Source of the DNA: a virus | Length of the DNA: 64,000 nucleotides | Virus record (IMG/VR): IMGVR_UViG_3300046777_001511 | Span: 4,602 to 68,601 of that record | Strand: one strand, 5' to 3' | Part shown: positions 4,440 through 39,657 of the stretch, piece by piece | Layout of the letters: the number at the start of each line of letters is the position of its first letter | Numbering within the stretch: the stretch's first letter is position 1 | Program-made: the position numbers and the translations under genes | Notes under the pieces: model-generated | Databases searched by the model: none | What the model was told of the DNA's origin: nothing | Seen by the model: the letters and a program-made list of their open reading frames with translations, nothing else

Positions 4440-5270
4440 ATGGGACTAACATCAGTACAAGGGCAAAGAACCCAAAGACCAATTCCTCCATCAGGATTAC
4501 ACCCGGCAATTTGCTATGCAATTATTGACATGGGAACGCATCAAGAATCATTCAAAGGCAATGTAAGCAATAAGCCTAAAGTAAAGTTTTGCTTTGAGTT
4601 TCCAACGCTACCTGAGCAGGTATTTGACGAAGCTAAAGGACCACAAAGATTATCTATTATGCAAGACTTCAATGTATATTCTGATGATAAATCTAATTTG
4701 TGTAAAATGCTTAAACAATGGAGAGGAGTAGCTAAAATTGATTTAGCAAAAGACTTACCAGCGTATTTAGGACAATCATGCCAAGTAATGGTTACTCACG
4801 TTCAAAAAGACGATATTACTTACGCGAACATAGCTGCATCAGGAACAATGATTTTACCTCCTACGGCTAATTATGGAGCACCTAAAAACAATCCTATACT
4901 ATTTGACTTGGATAAGTTTTCATGGCAGCAATTCCATTCTTTATGGCCATTCTTACAAAAGAAAATTAGAGAATCATTAGATTGGCAAGGAATTATTGCT
5001 AAGTTCGGTCAAGAGCCTCAAAACGGACAACAAGCAGCACCGCAGCAACAAGCGTTTCAACAGGCACCTGCTCAACAAACATTTCAGGCTCCTCAATACC
5101 AACAGCCAGCATTTGCTCAACCGCAACAACCTGTATTCCAACAGCCAGTTGCTCCGCCACAGCAACAAGTAGTTCCTCAGCAGCAAACATTTCAGCAAGC
5201 ACCTCCTCAAATGAATGCTCCGCAGACAGGAATATTTGTAGGTAACGATATGGATGCGCCTCCGTTCTAA
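4440..5270 (+). CDS. Phage single-stranded DNA-binding protein with Q/P-rich tail
   Basis: P.GLHPAICY.IID.GT N-domain, low-complexity Q/P linker and acidic DMDAPPF C-terminus typical of SSBs. Confidence 0.7.
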   Translation: MGLTSVQGQRTQRPIPPSGLHPAICYAIIDMGTHQESFKGNVSNKPKVKFCFEFPTLPEQVFDEAKGPQRLSIMQDFNVYSDDKSNLCKMLKQWRGVAKIDLAKDLPAYLGQSCQVMVTHVQKDDITYANIAASGTMILPPTANYGAPKNNPILFDLDKFSWQQFHSLWPFLQKKIRESLDWQGIIAKFGQEPQNGQQAAPQQQAFQQAPAQQTFQAPQYQQPAFAQPQQPVFQQPVAPPQQQVVPQQQTFQQAPPQMNAPQTGIFVGNDMDAPPF

Positions 5271-5674: not shown

Positions 5675-6144
5675 GCTTAGTTATTAGACATTACGGGAAA
5701 ATAGAAAATGGAGTAAAGAAATACTACAATCCTGAATTGTATAAAAAACAAATTGAATCATTAGAAGGTCAAGAGTTTGAAGAAGTGATTAAGAAAAGAT
5801 TCCATAAAGTTTCTACTGATCAACATGCTTATTACAGAGGAGCCATATTGCAAACAGCTCATCAGCACGAAGCGTTTAGTCATTTTAATAAGCCTGACGA
5901 TATTCATGAGGACGTAATAGCTCCTACATTTTTATCTTATGTAAAACCAATAGAATTAAAAGGAAAGAGATGGGACAAATTAGAAGTTATTAGCACATCA
6001 AGTTTATCAAAGGAAGAAATGGCTAAGTTTATTGATAGAGTAATTGCGTGGTTATCTGTAGAATTTGGGATTGAAGTATTATCGCCGGAGGATTATTATT
6101 TAACATTACAAAACAATTTACAAGATGAAAACAATAACAATTAG
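5671..6144 (+). CDS. NinB/DUF1367-like recombination accessory protein
   Basis: S.DQH.YY.G...STSSLSKEEM.KFIDRV motif. Confidence 0.6.
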   Translation: MSLVIRHYGKIENGVKKYYNPELYKKQIESLEGQEFEEVIKKRFHKVSTDQHAYYRGAILQTAHQHEAFSHFNKPDDIHEDVIAPTFLSYVKPIELKGKRWDKLEVISTSSLSKEEMAKFIDRVIAWLSVEFGIEVLSPEDYYLTLQNNLQDENNNN

Positions 6145-6370
6145 ATTTGTACACAGGGTAAAAACTCATGATTACCTGATACAAAAATATACTTTCTTTG
6201 GTTGGAAGTATATACAGTATTCTCAAATGGGAGGCTTTGGAGATAGTGTAGATTTTCTCTACTGCAAAGACACAAAAGAAGAACTATTAAAAGAAGTTCT
6301 TGAGGATCACTATAAAATGGATAAAAGGTTTGTAAAGATTATTGAATACCCAGAACTTAAACATTATTAG
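6125..6370 (+). CDS. Hypothetical protein
   Basis: ORF in operon. Confidence 0.55.
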   Translation: MKTITIRFVHRVKTHDYLIQKYTFFGWKYIQYSQMGGFGDSVDFLYCKDTKEELLKEVLEDHYKMDKRFVKIIEYPELKHY

Positions 6371-6371
6371 C

Positions 6372-6650
6372 ATGGAACACAAGATTATAAACACAGGAGA
6401 TTATCTGCTAATAGTAGGTGACTCAGAGATTAAAGGAGGTGATTGGTACATAGATTTAAACTTAAAACAAATATTTTCTAAATCTAATCCACAGATTAGT
6501 AAAATAGAATGGCAGAAAAAAATCATAGGACACTTACCACTAAACAACTCGCCAATACTTGAAGATGTAGATTTATTACCTAAGTTCAGTAAAGAAGAAG
6601 ATGTTGAAAAGAAGTATAAATCTTATCTTAAAAAACAAAAAAAACAATGA
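6372..6650 (+). CDS. Hypothetical protein (probable start ATG 6372)
   Basis: EIKGGDWY...KKIIGHLPLNNSPILE pattern; ATGA overlap with the next gene. Confidence 0.55.
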   Translation: MEHKIINTGDYLLIVGDSEIKGGDWYIDLNLKQIFSKSNPQISKIEWQKKIIGHLPLNNSPILEDVDLLPKFSKEEDVEKKYKSYLKKQKKQ

Positions 6651-7810: not shown

Positions 7811-8291
7811 TCACTCTATAAGAGTTGATTTAGATTTATCACTGCAACAATACGTTGTAATGGATTTTATGAGTTATTGTTGGGATAAAAGATTAAATCC
7901 TGAAAGCAATTCTATAGAGTTAATAGCTATTGAATTTGATAAAATAATCCCTTACATTTCTTTATTGAGAGAAAAGGGATTACTTTCAGAAAATCAACCA
8001 ACAGATAAGTGGTTAAGTTGTTTTGTAAAAACTAAAAAGAAAAAATCTAAAAATGAGTTCATACCGCCAACGCAAGAAGATGTCATTTCATATTTCAAAG
8101 AAAAAGGGTATTCAGATATTCAAGCCAAAAAAGCGTTTGAATATTATTCTGTGGCTGATTGGAAAGATCGTAACGGCGATAAAGTCGTTAATTGGAAACA
8201 AAAAATGATTGCCAATTGGATGAAAGAAGAACACAAAGTAGTTAATCAGTCTCAATCAGTTTCATTTGAACCAAAAGTTTATAAAAGATGA
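7779..8291 (+). CDS. Replication initiator-like protein
   Basis: C-terminal FIPPT.EDV..YF...F.YY...W...NWK domain; ATGA-coupled to DnaB. Confidence 0.6.
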   Translation: MTKITGLTLINHSIRVDLDLSLQQYVVMDFMSYCWDKRLNPESNSIELIAIEFDKIIPYISLLREKGLLSENQPTDKWLSCFVKTKKKKSKNEFIPPTQEDVISYFKEKGYSDIQAKKAFEYYSVADWKDRNGDKVVNWKQKMIANWMKEEHKVVNQSQSVSFEPKVYKR

Positions 8292-9643
8292 ATGCTCTTC
8301 CTCAAGCAATAGAAATTGAAGCCTTAGTTTTAGGGCAAATACTTTACTTTCCTAAAGCTATGGAAGAAGTGGTTAATGTTTTAACTCCAGAACATTTTCA
8401 TCACCCTTCTCATGCTTTGGTTTATAAATGCTGCAAATGGCTTTACGATACTAAAAAGCCAATAGAAAGCATAACAGTCATTCAGGCACTAAAAGAAAAT
8501 AATTACCTCGAAAAAATAGGAGGAGCTTTTTTTGTAGTAAGTCTAACAAACGATGTGGTTTCTTACGATAGCATTGATAAATACACTGAAATTCTCAGCG
8601 AGAAAAAGATGCTAAGGGAAGTTATAAATGTAGCTTCTACAACACTGGCAGAGGCTTATAATCCAAAATGTGTAGCATCAGAATTAGTTGACAAATACGA
8701 AAAGAATTTAACCGAAATAACCACTAAGTTAACAGGAGATAATCTTTCAAGTTCAAAAGATATTCATAATAAAATGATTGAAAGAAATGCCACGATACTA
8801 AATAATCAAGGCAAACTAGGAGTTACTTCAGGATTTTCGGGCATTGATTCTATTACTTCTGGATGGCAAGAGCCTGATTTAATTATATTGGCAGCACGTC
8901 CTGCAATGGGAAAATCTTCATTAGCAGCTCAGTTAGTTTCTAATCCTGCAATAATACAAGGAAAGTCAGTTGCTTTATTTACTCTTGAAATGTCAACTAT
9001 GCAGTTTTATGCTAGAATGCAATCCCAACAAAGCGGAATAGCTGTAGAAAAGATATTAAGAACAGGATTAAATGAATATGAATTAACTCAATTAAATACA
9101 TCATGCGAACCTCTTAAAAACTCCCCTATTTACATTGATGATACTCCGGGTATATCTATATTCGATTTAAGAAATAAATGCCGTAAATTAAAAAGAGATA
9201 AGAATTTAGGGCTAATTGTTATTGATTACTTGCAATTAGTTACCGTTCCTGATCACAAAGGCAATAGAGAGCAAGAAATAGGGATGATTTCACGCTCATT
9301 AAAGAACTTAGCAAAAGAATTAAACATTCCAATTATAGCGCTTTCCCAATTAAGCAGAGCAGTTGAATCTAGGGCAGACAAAAGACCTTTGTTATCTGAC
9401 CTGAGAGAATCAGGATCAATAGAAATGGATGCAGATATTGTTTCTTTCTTATATCGCCCCGAATATTATGGTATCATGCAGGATGACAGAGGAAACCCAA
9501 CATCAGGAATGGCTATGCTAATTATAGCTAAACACAGGAACGGGCCATTGGCAGATATCATGTTATCATTCGAGCACGATAAAACTAAATTTACTGATTA
9601 TCAGCACAATAGCATGTATGGTAAAAAAAATATTACTTTTTAA
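8288..9643 (+). CDS. dnaB: Replicative DNA helicase DnaB
   Basis: AARPAMGKS, IDYLQL, LSQLSR, DLRESGSIEMDAD, IAKHRNG. Confidence 0.97.
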   Translation: MNALPQAIEIEALVLGQILYFPKAMEEVVNVLTPEHFHHPSHALVYKCCKWLYDTKKPIESITVIQALKENNYLEKIGGAFFVVSLTNDVVSYDSIDKYTEILSEKKMLREVINVASTTLAEAYNPKCVASELVDKYEKNLTEITTKLTGDNLSSSKDIHNKMIERNATILNNQGKLGVTSGFSGIDSITSGWQEPDLIILAARPAMGKSSLAAQLVSNPAIIQGKSVALFTLEMSTMQFYARMQSQQSGIAVEKILRTGLNEYELTQLNTSCEPLKNSPIYIDDTPGISIFDLRNKCRKLKRDKNLGLIVIDYLQLVTVPDHKGNREQEIGMISRSLKNLAKELNIPIIALSQLSRAVESRADKRPLLSDLRESGSIEMDADIVSFLYRPEYYGIMQDDRGNPTSGMAMLIIAKHRNGPLADIMLSFEHDKTKFTDYQHNSMYGKKNITF

Positions 9644-9654
9644 TTAAAAATTTG

Positions 9655-9662
9655 TAACTTTG
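9655..9662 (+). promoter_or_regulatory. Bacteroidetes -7 promoter element
   Basis: TAACTTTG in the intergenic gap upstream of 9702. Confidence 0.5.
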
Positions 9663-9701
9663 TACAAATTCTTACGTTAAACATTATAAAAACTATCAAA
9701 C

Positions 9702-10211
9702 ATGAAAAAATTAATCACAACAGCTTTATTGTTAGCAAGGCTTACAGTTAGCGCACAAACTCCACTAGAAGAAAGATACGATGTATTTGACAGCATCTCT
9801 AGTGATGGAATTGATTTCATAGCAAAATTCGAGGGAGCATTTGTAAATTCTGAAAACAGAAATGATACAATTGTTGTTTACCCTTACATTTCTTACTATG
9901 AGTTTGAAGGATTTAAAATCGAAGGCATTTGGCTTCATTTTTTGAATAAATTTGAGAAAGTAAAAAATGTTGATTTTATTTTTGAAAAAGAAACAATAGC
10001 TTTACATGCTTGCAAATCTCAGGATCAAACTAAATTTGATAAAAAATATATCATATCAGCAAACAGCAAAGTTAGTCCTGATGCTTTTTTTACTCCTCTA
10101 TATATGATTAACTTTAACGGAAAATCATATATTCCTATCAACAATGGCGATGTGTATTTTATATACATGCTTAATGTAATTGAAAATTTAAAGTCTAACT
10201 GGTTAAAATAA
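9702..10211 (+). CDS. Secreted/periplasmic hypothetical protein
   Basis: Signal peptide MKKLITTALLL...VSA|Q, typical of Bacteroidetes. Confidence 0.6.
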   Translation: MKKLITTALLLARLTVSAQTPLEERYDVFDSISSDGIDFIAKFEGAFVNSENRNDTIVVYPYISYYEFEGFKIEGIWLHFLNKFEKVKNVDFIFEKETIALHACKSQDQTKFDKKYIISANSKVSPDAFFTPLYMINFNGKSYIPINNGDVYFIYMLNVIENLKSNWLK

Positions 10212-10567: not shown

Positions 10568-10673
10568 TTTGTCAAGATCCATTGATTGGTGGACAAAAAA
10601 ATCAGAAAACAGCGTTAGACAATCTTTTAACATAGAATTGTACATGAAGATTATTAAAATGAGAGGCTTATAA
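10551..10673 (+). CDS. Small hypothetical protein (40 aa) ending at the first TAAC junction
   Basis: MGKLFSLSRSIDWW...MRGL*; its TAA stop is the TAA of TAAC 10671-10674. Confidence 0.55.
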   Translation: MGKLFSLSRSIDWWTKKSENSVRQSFNIELYMKIIKMRGL

Positions 10674-10796
10674 CGGTAGGCGGCTAAACGAGGTGGCTGA
10701 TTGACACCTTGAAACTTAATTAAAATAACGAAATTATGAATACAGAAAAAACTTCATTAGAAAAAGAAAGTCAGACATCTTGTTTAGGTGCTGTTA
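10671..10796 (+). repeat. attC-like hairpin J1 (126 bp)
   Basis: TAAC, 5 nt, arm 10680-10702 pairing with arm 10769-10791, T, GTTA. Confidence 0.75.
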
Positions 10797-10975
10797 TAGG
10801 CTGTAAATTTTTTCTCATAATGGCTTTACAAAGAGGCTATAATGCAGATATACCACACAGACTATATTTAACAGAAGAAGATGCAAAAAAAGTCGCAGAT
10901 GAACACAATAGGAATTACGATGTAAAATGGGTTGTAAAAGAGGTGAAGTTCGATGAAAAAATTTATTGCCTATAA
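10736..10975 (+). CDS. Cassette 1 hypothetical protein
   Basis: Starts in the J1 loop; its stop is the TAA of TAAC 10973. Confidence 0.6.
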   Translation: MNTEKTSLEKESQTSCLGAVIGCKFFLIMALQRGYNADIPHRLYLTEEDAKKVADEHNRNYDVKWVVKEVKFDEKIYCL

Positions 10976-11076
10976 CGTTTTGCAGCTTTGAGCCGTTTAA
11001 ACGAATATTAATTTAAAACAATAATTAACGAATATGAATAACAAGGAAATAGAAAATGGCTTCAAAGGTGCTGTTA
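10973..11076 (+). repeat. attC-like hairpin J2 (104 bp)
   Basis: TAAC, 5 nt, GCAGCTTTGAGCCGTTT pairing with AAATGGCTTCAAAGGTGC, T, GTTA. Confidence 0.75.
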
Positions 11077-11246
11077 GCGGTAGTTTGAGGGAACAATCTC
11101 TTGAATGGTTTTTCGCAAAAAGTGAAATTGAGAAACACGATTTAAAAGACAAACACTTTCCAAACACACCAATACAGCATAGTAGGCAATGGGGATTTCA
11201 TTTCACTTTTGGTCAAATTGAGGAAATGTATGTTAAAGAACGGTAG
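11034..11246 (+). CDS. Cassette 2 hypothetical protein
   Basis: Starts in the J2 loop and reads GAVSG across GTTA. Confidence 0.6.
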   Translation: MNNKEIENGFKGAVSGSLREQSLEWFFAKSEIEKHDLKDKHFPNTPIQHSRQWGFHFTFGQIEEMYVKER

Positions 11247-11257
11247 CAAATTACCGC

Positions 11258-11344
11258 TAACGGATGGGTATTTGCGAAGTTGCCCTTGCAGATACTTCAA
11301 ATTAAGCACAAATGTTGATGGGCAATTTTGCAAATACCTTGTTA
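11258..11344 (+). repeat. attC-like hairpin J3 (87 bp)
   Basis: TAAC, 5 nt, GGTATTTGCGAAGTTGCCC pairing with GGGCAATTTTGCAAATACC, TT, GTTA. Confidence 0.8.
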
Positions 11345-11407
11345 CCTGCTGGTGCGGTTAATTAGGACAAAACTTAAATACGGAGAACTAAAAAAACTTT
11401 TATTAAA

Positions 11408-12268
11408 ATGAGCAAAGGAAAAAAAGAAATATTGTTTGGAGATTGTTTGGACTTGATGAAAACCATTAATGATAATAGCATTGATTTGGTTTTTACATCA
11501 CCGCCTTACGCTGAACGCAGAAAAGCAACATACGGAGGCACAAATGAGAATGAATATGTTGATTGGTTTTTACCGATTGGAGCAGAGATAAAACGCATTT
11601 TGAAACCTACTGGCAGTTTCTTTTTAAACATAAAGCCACATACCAACAACGGAGAAAGAAGCCTGTATGTTTATGATTTGATTTGCCAACTGAAAAGAGA
11701 AACGGGCTTTATGTTTGTTGAAGAATATTGTTGGACTAAAAATGCTTTTCCAGGCAGTTTGAAAGGAAGGTTTAAAAATGCGTTTGAGCCGATATACCAC
11801 TTTACAAAAAACTCACCGAATAAAATCACATTTAACCCTGTGGCTTGCGGAACACCGATAAAGGAAGAAAGTATTGCAAGGACTTACAGAAAGCAATGTG
11901 GAGCACCTAAAAACGGAAGCGGAATGACTGGAATGAATACCACTAACATACGGAACTTAGGACTTGCAAGACCTTCAAATGTGATAAATGTGAATAACGT
12001 AAGCAACCAATTTTCAGATAAGCAACTACACCCTGCTACATTTCCCGAAGGATTGGTTGAGTTTTTTGTAAAATCATTTACGAATGAAGGCGATATTGTG
12101 TTGGACCCGTTTGGAGGAAGCGGAACTGTTGCTTTAACGTGTGTAAAAACCAAAAGACAATTTATACTTATGGAAAAACAAGAACAATATTTTGAACTCA
12201 TTAAAAAGCGGGTGGGAGATTTTAATAAAAGTTTTTTAACGGAACTTCCATTTGAAAACGAAATGTAG
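11408..12268 (+). CDS. Beta-class DNA amino-methyltransferase (N4-C/N6-A), cassette 3
   Basis: FTSPPY catalytic motif before HPATFP and the DPFGGSGT SAM motif; SPPY favours m4C. Confidence 0.92.
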   Translation: MSKGKKEILFGDCLDLMKTINDNSIDLVFTSPPYAERRKATYGGTNENEYVDWFLPIGAEIKRILKPTGSFFLNIKPHTNNGERSLYVYDLICQLKRETGFMFVEEYCWTKNAFPGSLKGRFKNAFEPIYHFTKNSPNKITFNPVACGTPIKEESIARTYRKQCGAPKNGSGMTGMNTTNIRNLGLARPSNVINVNNVSNQFSDKQLHPATFPEGLVEFFVKSFTNEGDIVLDPFGGSGTVALTCVKTKRQFILMEKQEQYFELIKKRVGDFNKSFLTELPFENEM

Positions 12269-12330
12269 CACTTGCAGGTAACTTACTTCTTTGCGCTACT
12301 TTATAGCGCCTTATATACATAAATTACATT

Positions 12331-12900
12331 ATGAGCAAAAAACAATCAATATCCGAAGAAACATTATTAAAGATGGGACTTCATCGTAATGCTGATGGTT
12401 CCTACTCAAAAGCTAAAACAACATTGCAACCTCGCGAAAAAGAACAAGTAGTAGTTAAAAATAATGAGTTAAGAAAAATAACTATTACTTTGTTCGGCGA
12501 GCCTATGGCAAAACAATCTGTTAGATCCACAAAGTCAGGACACTTTTTTCAGCCTAAAAAATATGTTGACAAAGAAAAAGATTATAGGAATCAAATAGCT
12601 AAACAGCTACCAAAAGATTTTGTAATGTTTACAGAAGAAGCTAGGATACTTAAATTGCATTTTATTTATCCTCCATTAAAAGCTTTCCATAAAATAAAAG
12701 GACGAATGGAGCAAATAAGAGATGGAATATTGTTTCCAAAAACAACTAAGCCAGATGTATGTGATAACTTAAAAAAATTAGTTTTAGATTCCATGAGTAA
12801 ATTAGTTTATTCTGACGATAGCATAATTTGGGCTGAAGATAATGTTAGGAAATTTTACGGAACAGGAGGATGTACCATAATTGAAATAGAAGGAAAATGA
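12331..12900 (+). CDS. rusA: RusA-family Holliday junction resolvase
   Basis: GEPMAKQSVR, KPDVCDNLKK.VLD, DDS motifs. Confidence 0.85.
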   Translation: MSKKQSISEETLLKMGLHRNADGSYSKAKTTLQPREKEQVVVKNNELRKITITLFGEPMAKQSVRSTKSGHFFQPKKYVDKEKDYRNQIAKQLPKDFVMFTEEARILKLHFIYPPLKAFHKIKGRMEQIRDGILFPKTTKPDVCDNLKKLVLDSMSKLVYSDDSIIWAEDNVRKFYGTGGCTIIEIEGK

Positions 12901-13577
12901 ATAAAGAGTGGTTAGACTTTATAAATGCTGAAATACAAAAAGACTACATGGTTAGTCTTAAATCTTTTATTGATTTCGAAAGACAATCTAATGTAGTTTA
13001 TCCTGCGGCAAACATTACTTTTAATCACATGAATTTTTGTCCATACGATAAACTTAAAGTAGTCATTATAGGAAATGCTCCATTTTGCGAAAACGTCAAC
13101 GATGGTCTTGCTTTTTCTGCCTATGGACACATTCATCCAGAAGATAACAAAAACATCATATACGAGGCTTTTAGGGATTATTTTAAGGCATGGAATAATA
13201 CTAGCGAAATTAAAAACAAACTATACCCTACAGGACAATTAACTGAATGGGCTAAACAAGGAGTTTTACTGATTAATTCAATTTATACTTGCACCGATAA
13301 AGATAGATTTTCTCACAAGAACAAAGGATGGGAAACATTTAACGAAAACCTTATTGAAAAATTAAATGATTATCACTTACCATTAGTATTTATTAATAAG
13401 TGTACTATTAAAGATTATACTAATAAAATTAATCCAAGAAAACATTTAATTATTAATGGCAATGATGCTAATTGGTGCACTAAAGCTAATGAGTTTATTC
13501 GCAATAGGAAAGTACCAATAGACCAACAGCATCATCAGTTAAAGATTAATTGGATGACAAAGCCTTTAAATGTTTAA
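12897..13577 (+). CDS. Uracil-DNA glycosylase family 1 homolog, catalytic motifs degenerate
   Basis: KVVIIGNAPF (vs GQDPY), GLAFS, WAKQGVLLIN, SH..KGWETF; HPSPLS absent. Confidence 0.8.
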   Translation: MNKEWLDFINAEIQKDYMVSLKSFIDFERQSNVVYPAANITFNHMNFCPYDKLKVVIIGNAPFCENVNDGLAFSAYGHIHPEDNKNIIYEAFRDYFKAWNNTSEIKNKLYPTGQLTEWAKQGVLLINSIYTCTDKDRFSHKNKGWETFNENLIEKLNDYHLPLVFINKCTIKDYTNKINPRKHLIINGNDANWCTKANEFIRNRKVPIDQQHHQLKINWMTKPLNV

Positions 13578-13992
13578 GCCCAATTATAACATCTGTGTAA
13601 ATTGCAATCAGCAGCGATTAATCGTTGTCAAGAAGGGATTGTGTAAATTCTGCAATCAATCTAAAAAAGGTAAAACAAAAGTTAAAATAAAACCTAAAAA
13701 GAAATCCGGTGAACTAAATATGTTTAAAGAATTATCTGAAGAAAAACAAAACAATGTTTGTCAATGCTGCAAAACTTTAATCCCTAGTTTATCACCAATT
13801 AATTTCAGTCACGTTCTCAGTAAAGGAGCTTATCCTTGTTATAGACTAGATAAAAGAAACATATTTATTGTTTGTGATAATTGTCATCATCAGTGGGAAT
13901 TTGGAGACAGGAATCAGCCTAAGTTTGCTTTTAAAAGAGACGTGGCTCAAATGCTTAAAGAGGAGTACTATAAAACAAAAAGCGGAAAATAA
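13570..13992 (+). CDS. Zn-finger HNH/NinG-like nuclease
   Basis: CxxC pairs, SH.LSKG, RN...VCDNCH. Confidence 0.7.
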   Translation: MFKPNYNICVNCNQQRLIVVKKGLCKFCNQSKKGKTKVKIKPKKKSGELNMFKELSEEKQNNVCQCCKTLIPSLSPINFSHVLSKGAYPCYRLDKRNIFIVCDNCHHQWEFGDRNQPKFAFKRDVAQMLKEEYYKTKSGK

Positions 13993-37599: not shown

Positions 37600-39657
37600 T
37601 TAATATTTTATCATTGAAGGATCTCCAATTAAAATGCTTGATGTTTGACCAACTGTTAAATTGTTGGAAACACTAGCATCATTTTTAGCAATTCCATTAG
37701 GGGATTGATTATTATATCTTGTACCTCTCGCATTAGTAGAACTCTTTTTTGTATTAGTGAGCATCAATAATTGTTGATGTCTTGATAATGTGCAATTAGT
37801 AATAGTTACAAACTTCGCTATTTTTTCAAAGTTATCGGTAAATGTTACTGTATAATTTGATGCGGAAGTAGAAGCAACTATTGTTTTAAAATTAGGTTTA
37901 CCACAAAAAAACTCATTCATAGTTAAAATTGTGGTTGTTCCTGCAATATTAACACTTTTCCAAGCAATTTTGTGCATATTTGTAAGCGTGTGATTAAAAT
38001 TTTGATTTAAGTATAAATCACATTTACTTGCATCAACATTACCTCTTATTAAGTTTATTATTCTTGAAGCTCCATTTGCGAAATTGATAGGACTGCTAAT
38101 GGTTATTTTACCACTAGTATCAAAGTACAAGTTTGTATTTATAGGATAAGCTATACTTAAACTTGATATAACACCATTGCCTACCATATAAATATTTCCT
38201 GCTCCTTGAGTTGATGCGGGCGCATTAAAAAATACACTACCACCAACATAAACTGTTCCTGTAATTGAAGAAACACCTGTATTGCTACTATATGTTAAAT
38301 TATTTGAACAATAAATTATTCCTGAATATGTTATTGTTGTATTTGTTGCTCCAGAAGAAGAATTATTTATATTGCAATTTCCGCAATAAATATTAAAAGC
38401 ACCGTTTATGGTTCCTTGACCACCACAAGTAAAAGTGTTTGAAATATATAAATTATTTGCTAATGTCATAGTATTTGCTCCACTACTAGCAAAGAAAAAA
38501 TTATTCCAAGTAATATTAGGGGTATTTATTGTAGCATTTACAGTTTGAAAAGTATTAGAATTAGTAATAACATCTACATCTCCTAATGTATGTGTTAGTG
38601 TACCTGTCGCATAATAAACATTAGCACCTAAAGTTAAAGTTCCACTTGTTTTATTTATAGTAACGCTTGTCCCTAAATAACCTGCCGCCGTATGATTCCA
38701 AGTTTGATTAACTGTTCCATTAAAATTTATTAATGTTGTTCCACCTATAGAAGCAGTTGTTGTTATACTTAAATTTCCTGTAATAAAAATATTATTACTT
38801 GTAAGTGTCATTGCAGTTGTTCCCGATAATGATAAATTTCCTGCTATTGTAAAATCATTACTAAAAGTGTATGTTTGAGATGTTCCTGCAAAAGTAACAT
38901 TGTTCCAAGTTATTCCATTAGCAGCAAATGTTGTAGATACTACAGAATTTAAAGTTGATGTGCCTGCATCAACAATTCCTTGAACATAGGTAAAAGTTCC
39001 TGTGTTGTAGTTTATTGTTCCTGATAAAGAAAGTGTGCCGCCAGTTTTATCTATTTTAATATTATTTCTTACTGCTCCAGTTGCGGTCCAAGAAATATTT
39101 TGATTTGCAGTACCGGTAAACTTAATTAAAGCTGTTCCTGCTAAAACTGACGAAGTACCACTATATGTAAAATCTCCTAATACATCAAATCTTTCAGTGT
39201 CTAAAACATTAGCTGAACTTAAAGTTATTGTAGTGCCAACTGAGCCACCTACTGTAACCGCTCCACTAATAGTAGCTTTATCATTTAAAGTTATAGTATA
39301 AGTACCAGATAAAAAAGTTAATTTTCCTGTCCAAACTTTATTGTTTGATGTAATAAAACCTGTTCCGGTTTTTCTAAAATCTCCATTAGCATTCGTTACA
39401 ACTGTATATGTAGCATTTCCGCCTGCATCACCAAACACTATATTGCCATTAATAATCAATGAAGAATTAAAAGTAATTACATTTTGATAATTAGAAAAAT
39501 CTATATTTGTTATAGTAGTGCTAATATTAACAGTTAGTTGACCTGATGATGTCGTAAAGTCAATATTGTCTGCCGCTCCCGGAATACCAACCCCACCGAC
39601 ATAAGTTGATGCAGAATTTATATTACCACCACCCGGAGCTACTGTGTAAGTTGCCAT
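37600..39657 (-). CDS. Beta-solenoid tail spike/receptor-binding protein
   Basis: T/N/G-rich internal repeats (G..NQ...W.....INKT.GTL.L). Confidence 0.7.
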   Translation of the reverse strand: MATYTVAPGGGNINSASTYVGGVGIPGAADNIDFTTSSGQLTVNISTTITNIDFSNYQNVITFNSSLIINGNIVFGDAGGNATYTVVTNANGDFRKTGTGFITSNNKVWTGKLTFLSGTYTITLNDKATISGAVTVGGSVGTTITLSSANVLDTERFDVLGDFTYSGTSSVLAGTALIKFTGTANQNISWTATGAVRNNIKIDKTGGTLSLSGTINYNTGTFTYVQGIVDAGTSTLNSVVSTTFAANGITWNNVTFAGTSQTYTFSNDFTIAGNLSLSGTTAMTLTSNNIFITGNLSITTTASIGGTTLINFNGTVNQTWNHTAAGYLGTSVTINKTSGTLTLGANVYYATGTLTHTLGDVDVITNSNTFQTVNATINTPNITWNNFFFASSGANTMTLANNLYISNTFTCGGQGTINGAFNIYCGNCNINNSSSGATNTTITYSGIIYCSNNLTYSSNTGVSSITGTVYVGGSVFFNAPASTQGAGNIYMVGNGVISSLSIAYPINTNLYFDTSGKITISSPINFANGASRIINLIRGNVDASKCDLYLNQNFNHTLTNMHKIAWKSVNIAGTTTILTMNEFFCGKPNFKTIVASTSASNYTVTFTDNFEKIAKFVTITNCTLSRHQQLLMLTNTKKSSTNARGTRYNNQSPNGIAKNDASVSNNLTVGQTSSILIGDPSMIKY

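Follow-up and report, generated by a model that had tools for sequence, protein, structure and literature searches.

Introduction

Can a phage carry a gene-capture array of its own, built like the cassette arrays of integrons and operated by a different enzyme? This question is raised by a stretch of DNA from an IMG/VR virus record (IMGVR_UViG_3300046777_001511, positions 4,602 to 68,601), which was analysed over its full length of 64,000 nucleotides (nt) and is referred to below as the window. The source genome measures 68.6 kb and is approximately 90% complete according to CheckV. Between positions 10671 and 12282 of the window, three imperfect hairpins that open with TAAC and close with GTTA alternate with three cassettes, each of which has its own inverted termini. 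An original prediction, made from the letters of the sequence, had interpreted this arrangement as an integron-like system of gene capture and shuffling in Bacteroidetes and their phages.

Here we present the analysis of this locus, of its relatives in other viral contigs and cultured phages, and of a recombinase gene found next to many of them. We conclude that 10671-12282 is probably a three-cassette mobile array of an integron-like system in Bacteroidota phages. The system is widespread in these phages and apparently undescribed: in the literature on phage integrons, cassettes and hairpins no description of it was found, which is not proof of absence.

Organisation of the array

The array is situated in a replication/recombination module, with the DnaB gene (8288-9643) on its left and the RusA gene (12331-12900) on its right. 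In it, three TAAC-hairpin-GTTA elements (J1-J3) alternate with three GTTA...TAAC cassettes (C1-C3) and tile the whole stretch, all on the + strand; the two ends of each cassette pair with each other. The hairpins J1 (10671-10796, 126-nt class), J2 (10973-11076, 104 nt) and J3 (11258-11344, 87-nt class, with a 20-bp stem) lie exactly where they had been predicted, as does the closing TAAC at 12279-12282. The cassettes are C1 (10793-10976, 184 nt), C2 (11073-11261, 189 nt) and C3 (11341-12282, 942 nt). Their own-end helices are formed by 10793-10814 with 10955-10976 (20/22 positions paired), 11073-11087 with 11247-11261 (14/15) and 11341-11355 with 12268-12282 (13/15), and these counts likewise agree with the original prediction. 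It had also claimed that each TAAC flank best matches the GTTA flank of its own cassette; in the window, 9-10 of 11 positions form Watson-Crick pairs with the own flank, versus 2-4 of 11 with those of other cassettes. Apart from T.T in C1 and C3, all mismatches between cassette ends consist of G in the 5' arm opposite T in the 3' arm, the one in C2 being at position 11, and hence are wobble pairs on the + strand only.

Two of the hairpins fold well by themselves and do so better on the + strand: J1 reached -26.6 kcal/mol (z -2.9) versus -18.3 on the - strand, and J3 -33.1 kcal/mol (z -5.1) versus -24.9. J2 is weak as a lone hairpin (z -1.85, with 12 of 200 shuffles folding equally well), and its standing therefore rests on homology and on the covariance model described below.

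The loops of J1 and J2 contain the start codons of the genes that follow. Open reading frame (ORF) 1 in C1 occupies 10736-10975 and encodes 79 amino acids (aa) from the ATG in J1, or 52 aa from an ATG at 10820; ORF2 in C2 (11034-11246, 70 aa) starts in the J2 loop. Neither protein has a family match in Pfam or PHROG. The ATG in the loop of J3 begins a frame of 17 codons, which traverses the 3' arm of the hairpin as well as the terminus of the cassette, and the gene of C3 (11408-12268) encodes an N4/N6 DNA methyltransferase (Pfam PF01555, E 1.5e-45; PHROG 67). C3 also possesses an inner inverted repeat, perfect over 19 bp (11391-11409/12219-12237); the left arm spans the start codon of the methyltransferase, and the right arm falls within the final 50 nt of its ORF.

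At the left junction (10664-10674), a 40-aa ORF ends with its stop codon within ...CTTATAAC and J1 follows directly. Judging by its letters, the flank departs from the canonical 3' terminus of a cassette, its position 11 being A and not T. The right junction between array and phage backbone consists of the closing TAAC and a 48-nt flank reaching to the RusA start (12279-12330).

Chance expectation and covariance model

To begin with the simplest control, bare GTTA..TAAC inverted pairs (at least 13/15) were counted in the genome and in Markov shuffles. Three were observed; the shuffles gave 1.86 on average and 28 of 100 contained three or more, for which reason the pair count was dropped as a test. 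Pairs of the cassette type alone occurred at a mean of 3.6 per shuffled strand. Chained units of hairpin plus cassette (J-C units), on the other hand, were absent from all 120 dinucleotide-shuffled genome strands. Shuffled sequences had been named at the outset as a possible refutation; the chained arrangement withstood them and the bare pairs did not. In the real genome the same strict detector called only one unit and, in addition, the hairpin of J3, since J2 and C3 narrowly miss its thresholds; at control loci from bacteria it called 8 J-C units in about 1.4 Mb (both strands).

A covariance model (R1) was built from 70 J hairpins of 85-92 nt from other contigs, with the window excluded. It recovered J3 with 89 bits (E 8.7e-17) and J2 with 37.6 bits (E 1.5e-5); the 11.6 bits of J1 (E 6.9) fall short of significance, and the rest of the 64 kb gave no hit. 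The covariance search proposed with the original prediction was thus successful in the window and, as shown below, in other phages. The arrangement is not a product of chance.

Anatomy of the family

A degenerate pattern of the J3 class was matched by at least 119 stretches in IMG/VR, with element lengths peaking at 87-91 nt. Among the matches listed, the best downstream TAAC paired at 10 or more of 11 ungapped positions in 68 of 124; in most of the others, pairing is interrupted by a T.T mismatch or by a bulge of one base. Pooling these loci with those found through the recombinase (see below), all of which are partial contig stretches, gave 331 units, of which 300 were non-identical and were used for the following counts.

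The own-end helix is 15 bp long including GTTA/TAAC. Positions 5-10 and 12-15 show 77-99% Watson-Crick pairing, which becomes random at position 16 and beyond. Position 11 is T on the 3' side in all 300 units and stands opposite G in 230. Across the hairpin, flanks pair at a mean of 5.0 of 11 positions (9 or more in 8 of 297), versus 9.9 of 11 for the own ends, where pairing was itself the criterion of detection. After GTT-A, position 5 of the core is T in 198 units and G in 89, and its partner before TAAC is A in 199. The original prediction had noted cores other than GTTRRRY and complementarity well beyond 7 bp; both hold for the whole family, in which 15 bp is the common length.

The hairpins themselves are opened by TAACG in 295 units and closed by TGTTA in 299, with A at position 11 in 295 and T at position 19 from the 3' end also in 295. 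Their lengths range from 48 to 190 nt and cluster at 48, about 80, 87-91 and 115-130 nt. An ATG lies within the hairpin in 264 units, and in 208 its frame continues through GTTA. Cassettes measure 75-3,274 nt (median 301); of their two strands, the + strand has the longer open frame in 262 units, against 34 for the - strand.

Consensus folding of 70 J elements with RNAalifold, window excluded, gave 24 base pairs, 17 of them with compensatory double changes, and many show three or four types of pair. Two G.U pairs are invariant, in columns 5/93 (68/70) and 24/78 (69/70). Nearly all wobbles have G in the 5' arm and T in the 3' arm, U.G and A.C occurring at most once or twice per column. As G.T wobbles on the + strand correspond to A.C mismatches on the complementary strand, the + strand folds better.

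Breakpoints and transfer of units

Five contigs (L001-L005) were obtained as relatives by their DnaB. Homology of the window to L001-L003 ends at 9758 and restarts exactly at 12279. Along 8,084 nt, L002 and L004 agree at 99.6% identity; they separate directly behind ...CTTATAAC (TAAC), the same letters that precede J1 in the window. In L002 this is an empty site, ...CTTATAAC|TTACATCTTTGCG, which runs straight into the RusA flank, and in L004 it is occupied by J-C-J-C-J up to the contig end. An empty site in related phages had been suggested as a check on the array, and L002, beside its near-identical counterpart L004, provides it. Model R1 found hairpins in L004, L005 and a further contig, L082, and none in the empty-site contig L002.

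Homologous parts recur in other combinations. The second cassette of L004 (12865-13142) has C1-type termini with a compensatory change (G>A/C>T) around a different gene. L005 holds four J elements and three cassettes, and in every cassette the two ends pair with each other; among these elements and cassettes are a homologue of J2 (L005 11561-11686), in which the stem differs and is compensated, and a homologue of C3 with compensated termini and another gene within. The 19-bp repeat of C3 is kept in L005 around this unrelated gene, and the two proteins are alike at their first few and last approximately 20 residues. A homologue of J1 with 86% identity covers the exact span 10671-10796 in L153. 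L082 carries J3 plus C3 (11249-12283) at 99.5% identity and has nothing else in common with the whole 68.6-kb genome.

The ends of blast matches pile up at 10671, 10796, 11258, 11344 and 12279-12283, nine matches beginning exactly at 11258 and three stopping exactly at 11344. Contigs from four other metagenomes break at 10973, 11344, 12279 and 12282, and loose contig ends from two other metagenomes coincide with the start of J2 at 10973. One pair of long contigs shares the backbone up to 10685 and from exactly 12279, with other content between; in a 26-kb contig of another metagenome, the match begins precisely at 12279 and continues from there. Within cassettes, 10811 is joined to 10958 in C1 in a contig from another metagenome, and 11422-11431 to 12203-12211 in C3 in contigs of the same kind. 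Homologous cassettes and hairpins with breakpoints exactly at TAAC/GTTA, as anticipated, do therefore occur elsewhere, and the breakpoints in relatives define the mobile unit as [J-GTTA-cassette-TAAC], joined at the core.

A tyrosine recombinase linked to the arrays

Clustering of the proteins encoded at hairpin-bearing loci revealed a tyrosine recombinase of 265-276 aa in eight loci. In four of them (L052, L112, L138, L162) its gene is on the same strand as the array, and some 40-60 nt separate the last TAAC from its start. The protein has the domains PF00589 and PF13495 and preserves the catalytic R..K..HxxR..Y residues. Its best NCBIfam model is recomb_XerA_Arch ("XerA / integron integrase") with 175-200 bits, below the cut-off of 220. 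Scores with the models of the integron integrase IntI also remained under their cut-offs: 148-167 bits in two stretches with TIGR02249 (cut-off 265) and 69-96 bits with NF011946 (cut-off 435). The recombinase aligns with XerA (4a8e) over its full length (10-262), and with IntI4 (2a3v) only at 15-181.

When 80 IMG/VR loci were fetched by homology to the recombinase alone (36-100% identity), J-C units were present upstream on the same strand in 50 of the 80, and on the opposite strand in none. Where at least 1,500 nt of upstream sequence was available, the proportion was 46 of 63. In 25 loci the distance from the last TAAC to the recombinase ATG is 36-52 nt, and this spacer begins with a recurrent TAT(T/A/C)ATATAT. 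Among 80 bacterial loci with homologues of 34-46% identity, nearly all from Bacteroidota, units were found in three on the + strand and in two on the - strand. The attribution to "Bacteroidetes and their phages" should therefore be taken to mean mainly the phages, where arrays are common; beside the bacterial homologues of the recombinase they are rare.

As the co-occurring enzyme, a tyrosine recombinase or an HUH nuclease had been envisaged. The former was found, at a fixed distance in relatives, and the latter was not: the HUH Y1 transposase domain PF01797 had no match at E<=1 in the genome, and no HUH gene was present in the 25 most frequent clusters of neighbouring proteins from about 120 loci.

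Two contigs deserve separate mention. L162 has identical hairpin and ORF coordinates on both strands, which suggests an inverted duplication or an assembly artefact. L251, a 420-kb contig of a Flavobacterium sp. metagenome-assembled genome, carries four J-C units opposite in strand to its recombinase homologue, the only such arrangement among the 80 bacterial loci; these units may belong to a prophage or to a chromosomal array.

Arrays in cultured phages

No cultured phage matched the array region itself by megablast or blastn. Homologues of the recombinase, annotated as "integrase", are encoded by the Polaribacter phages Freya_1-10, Danklef_1-5 and Leef_1 and by the Cellulophaga phage Ingeline. 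Phages Freya_1, 2, 5, 6, 9 and 10, isolated on one host, are approximately 100% identical around this gene and differ in the blocks directly upstream of it. Freya_1 has no such block and Freya_10 one of 4.9 kb, of which Freya_2, 5 and 9 contain nested subsets, and Freya_6 has an additional 440 nt. The right junction, ...TAAC|ACCCC, is common to all variants, and about 50 nt separate it from the ATG of the integrase gene that follows. On the left the junctions read CAAC, TAAC, CAAC and CAAC, which leaves AAC as the shared triplet.

In Danklef_5 a unit with an adenine methylase lies upstream of the integrase gene, for which the annotation is fragmented. At 5976-6495 of its contig (L344) the integrase is annotated as a 132-nt remnant beside a hypothetical gene on the opposite strand, and the tblastn match covers residues 111-264 only, J-C units remaining upstream; from the partial match and the remnant annotation, the gene looks broken in the Danklef isolates. 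An HNH endonuclease gene is located directly 3' of the integrase gene in both Freya (L330/L331) and Danklef (L344).

Model R1 gave weak matches of 25-26 bits in Leef_1 and Ingeline_1; if these two phages and Freya_10 possess arrays, they are of other hairpin classes. Three R1 hairpins were found in Cellulophaga phage phi18:3, with J-C units at methyltransferase or Mom genes, and four in Polaribacter phage P12002L, where units carry a methyltransferase and a Mom-like gene; J hairpins of P12002L lie at about 38035-38090 and 38879-38936. The probable assignment to Bacteroidota hosts is drawn solely from these cultured phages and from the relatives of the recombinase. In the paper describing the Polaribacter isolates (Bartlau et al., PMC8776804), the available part of the text takes their integrases as a sign of a temperate lifestyle or lysogeny and never mentions integron, cassette, indel or hairpin.

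Cargo of the cassettes

A random 150 of the 284 distinct cassette ORFs of at least 45 aa were compared with Pfam. About five-sixths had no match. The others fell into 14 families, led by N6_N4_Mtase (8), Mom (3) and D12 methyltransferase (3), with single occurrences of N6_Mtase, C5 methylase, MT-A70, Dam, Lar and GP88 and a few domains of unknown function. As far as it can be named from sequence, the cargo mostly comprises DNA modification functions of a kind that protect phage DNA from restriction, in keeping with the methyltransferase of C3.

Proposed mechanism

By analogy with integrons, we infer that the recombinase is the agent of cassette movement, that folded single-stranded DNA is its substrate, and that cleavage occurs at the core. 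The mobile unit is [J hairpin - GTTA - cassette - TAAC]; successive units follow one another head to tail and have the core AAC in common, and the crossover would fall within this triplet or immediately behind it. The J element would act as the counterpart of attC: it is an imperfect hairpin TAACG...TGTTA with a bulge of 4-5 nt on the 5' side and a stem that is variable and yet paired, in which a few positions are invariant and include G.T pairs, so that only the + strand folds well. The 11 nt inside GTTA/TAAC, being complementary to their partner in the same cassette and not to the neighbour's, would correspond to the R box of integrons.

In an excised circle, the order X'-TAAC-J-GTTA-X would create one long hairpin, in which the 15-bp helix and its fixed G.T are followed, past an asymmetric bulge, by the 20-bp stem, itself with G.T pairs at fixed positions; this could offer two binding sites to a recombinase dimer. 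The likely catalyst is the Xer/IntI-related tyrosine recombinase of 265-287 aa, with its gene, in related phages, 36-52 nt 3' of the last TAAC and on the same strand. One strand would be exchanged at AAC, either between two such sites or between a site and the spacer before the recombinase gene, and replication would complete the exchange, as in integrons. The complete order would thus be a 5' arm with AAC, a spacer, stem and variable loop, a 3' arm from GTT, the self-pairing cassette, a short spacer and the sense recombinase gene, with translation often starting from the ATG in the J loop. As the phage of the window has no recombinase gene, its array would need servicing in trans, possibly by the enzyme of a co-infecting phage, a prophage or the host, in the manner of a cluster of attC sites lacking an integron integrase (CALIN).

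A broader proposal, on which our judgement is evenly balanced, is that Bacteroidota phages maintain a gene-capture platform of their own, apart from bacterial integrons. A Xer-like clade of recombinases would swap self-contained cassettes among unrelated phages at structured single-strand sites, each cassette bringing its translation start, and perhaps a promoter, in its hairpin. The outcome would be a shared counter-defence pool, the phage-side mirror of defence-storing integrons, and the window would be a client without recombinase. As to promoters, inspection by eye of the J loops and arms gave only partial matches to the Bacteroidota -33/-7 boxes.

If the proposal is true, integron-like gene capture is not limited to bacteria and IntI, and a different recombinase clade with a different site design does the same job in phages. 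The mosaic accessory regions that have long been noted in phage genomes would thereby gain a concrete explanation by a site-specific mechanism. In Freya, Danklef and related flavobacterial phages, the protein labelled "integrase" may recombine cassettes, either in place of its presumed part in lysogeny or alongside it. The cassettes would then form a ready catalogue of candidate anti-defence genes. Phage-host pairs are available in culture: the Freya series (Polaribacter), phi18:3 (Cellulophaga) and P12002L.

Objections and alternative explanations

A number of observations weigh against the cassette interpretation. Recombination is visible only as end products, namely empty and occupied sites, transferred units and variants among isolates. 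The phage of the window, in its 68.6-kb and approximately 90% complete genome, has no tyrosine recombinase, and of nine further array-bearing virus records three have one, while none of the four that are 99-100% complete does; the structure is thus kept in phages unable to service it themselves. Matches of L117, L130 and L168 stop at 11344, which places the same J type before different cassettes and makes GTTA a breakpoint as well. Such a breakpoint is not predicted by a one-sided crossover, unless J types are homogenised in the way that is found in chromosomal integrons. Moreover, the ends of C3 are kept in L005 and in contigs from other metagenomes with other cargo between them, and replacement of cargo inside conserved cassette ends is not explained by a simple cassette model. 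Among the cultured phages, the first unit of the Freya_10 block is canonical and most of the remainder was not called by the detector, and R1 had no match there at E<=0.1. Junctions in Freya share 10-20 nt of similarity, and deletion driven by microhomology may have occurred at them. Finally, the detector thresholds were chosen by ourselves, own-end pairing served as the criterion for calling units, and the pattern search favours J elements of the 87-91-nt class.

Three of these points, the GTTA breakpoints, the cargo swaps inside conserved ends and the carriers without recombinase, keep alive a role at the level of RNA, as a rival or as a second function. The J elements and own-end helices would be structures of an early polycistronic mRNA, with translation starting in the loop, a closing stem, and effects on processing or stability. 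Shuffling would be a by-product of homologous or microhomology recombination, as proposed for the promoter-early stem-loops (PeSLs) of T4-like phages, and the recombinase would be simply the last early gene. This explanation survives best among the alternatives, and we consider it unlikely. It agrees well with the better folding of the transcribed strand, on which G.U pairs are ordinary in RNA, and with the 19-bp repeat that covers the start codon in C3 and persists in L005 around a different gene; the reading of all cassettes on the folding strand and the frequent ATGs in J, with frames continuing past GTTA, fit it as well as they fit a cassette array. The persistence of arrays in complete genomes without recombinase and the similarity at Freya junctions are also what it would lead one to expect. 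It is at a loss, however, with breakpoints at a 4-nt core beyond which one side has no homology, with wobbles confined almost entirely to G in the 5' and T in the 3' arm at fixed positions, unlike neutral drift of an RNA, and with the close and strand-specific linkage of arrays to the recombinase gene. In addition, reading of the sequence after the hairpins of the window revealed no T-run terminator.

Ordinary integron debris is an improbable explanation. According to it, the J elements would be divergent true attC sites, arranged in CALINs that were made, and are still recombined, by bacterial IntI, and the phage recombinase would be unrelated to them. The AAC...GTT cores, the hairpins of 48-190 nt and the own-end logic are compatible with attC. 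A CALIN with two methyltransferase genes was reported in P12002L by Qi et al. 2023 (PMC9892861, available part of the text), a phage in which we found J-C units around the methyltransferase and Mom genes too; the sites that they called may be J hairpins. Set against this, the cores do not fit RYYYAAC/GTTRRRY beyond TAAC/GTTA, pairing extends over 15 bp and not 7, the hairpin is 5' of the ORF and holds its start codon, and the element is tied to a recombinase other than IntI.

Single-strand transposition by an HUH enzyme of the IS200/IS605 type, inserting 3' of TAAC and recognising subterminal hairpins, is very improbable: insertion 3' of a tetranucleotide without target duplication, a hairpin at the 5' end and strand-specific folding would suit it, but the genome and the neighbourhoods searched yielded no such enzyme and the one that co-occurs is a tyrosine recombinase. 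Chance inverted repeats in AT-rich DNA have already been refuted and have practically no probability left, for the shuffles that readily produce bare pairs never produced a J-C unit, the covariance model returned E values of about 9e-17 and 1.5e-5, and hundreds of homologous units covary.

The integron-like interpretation is therefore the one supported by the checks that were run; its recombination chemistry is, as set out above, drawn by analogy, and the phage of the window carries no recombinase.

Other features of the window

The coding sequence of the C3 methyltransferase holds two nested inverted repeats, 11591-11608/11768-11785 (17/18) and 11801-11821/12052-12072 (19/21), each of which is near chance expectation genome-wide by a rough estimate, yet both are concentrated in one gene. 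Rfam had no match at the array; a fluoride riboswitch at 12363-12411 scored below threshold (15.5 bits versus 34) and was taken as chance. To the left of the array, the region 9648-9722, upstream of an ORF at 9702, has about 84% identity in the relatives to a second place (L002 5548-5618) in addition to the syntenic one, and it is probably a repeated promoter or regulatory region.

To the right, a gene resembling uracil-DNA-glycosylase (12897-13577) represents a clean gene-sized indel: L001-L003 skip it, passing from 12898 to 13569, that is, from the RusA stop to the start of the next gene, and no TAAC/GTTA hairpins flank it. NinG/Rap-like HNH genes occur near arrays in 14 of about 120 loci, and there is one at 13570-13992 of the window.

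Comparison with known systems

Transposons of the IS200/IS605 group are defined by a Y1 HUH transposase, which was not found in the genome. PeSLs recombine by homology between near-identical promoter-terminator repeats and are not known to use a recombinase. In T4-type phages (PMC2839356, PMC4122927, available parts of the texts) they flank small ORFans in plastic regions and mark the borders of indels and replacements, which is similar to what was observed here. By contrast, the stems of the J elements differ from one another and covary, breaks occur at a core of 4 nt with no homology in the flanks, and there is a link to a recombinase.

A precedent for the enzyme is offered by the attP site of phage CTX, where XerCD, members of the Xer family, act on a hairpin of one DNA strand. 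There the whole phage genome integrates at dif, and cassette arrays are not involved.

With its three hairpins and no recombinase in 68.6 kb, the window resembles a CALIN. Using canonical models, Qi et al. 2023 (PMC9892861) reported attC sites and CALINs in 21 phages, including P12002L, and one of two P12002L sites tested recombined with attI1 under IntI1. Their phage CALINs are similar to our arrays in being integrase-less hairpin clusters of virulent phages with methyltransferase cargo, whose sites behaved as single-strand sites in the IntI1 assay. They differ in being treated as parts of bacterial integrons carried by phages; the available part of the paper (PMC9892861) does not describe a dedicated phage recombinase, a 15-bp own-end helix, a family of hundreds of units or cassette turnover among isolates, and the terms Bacteroid-, Flavobacter- and Xer are not mentioned in it. 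It may be that canonical attC tools have already caught a few members of the family, perhaps those in P12002L.

The closest comparison is with integrons themselves. Read along its bottom strand, an integron presents the array, a short spacer and the integrase gene, and the loci described here have the same order on the folding strand. In both, short cassettes, most of them unannotated, form an array in one direction next to the gene of a tyrosine recombinase; the site is a hairpin bounded by AAC...GTT with the junction at the triplet; cassette ends are complementary to their own site and not to that of the neighbour; one strand is favoured for folding; and arrays without recombinase, similar to CALINs, are common. 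There are also differences. The recombinase here has 265-287 aa, scores below the IntI cut-offs and resembles XerA over its full length. The cores of the window are GTTATAG, GTTAGCG and GTTACCT, not RYYYAAC/GTTRRRY, and the own ends pair over 15 bp, among them a fixed G.T. Each ORF has the hairpin on its 5' side, usually with an ATG inside, and the genes occupy the folding strand and point the same way as the recombinase gene. Bacteroidota phages are the carriers, with cargo that leans towards anti-restriction. By definition, then, the array is not an integron, as neither the recombinase passes for IntI nor the cores for R boxes; in every other feature that could be compared it is integron-like.

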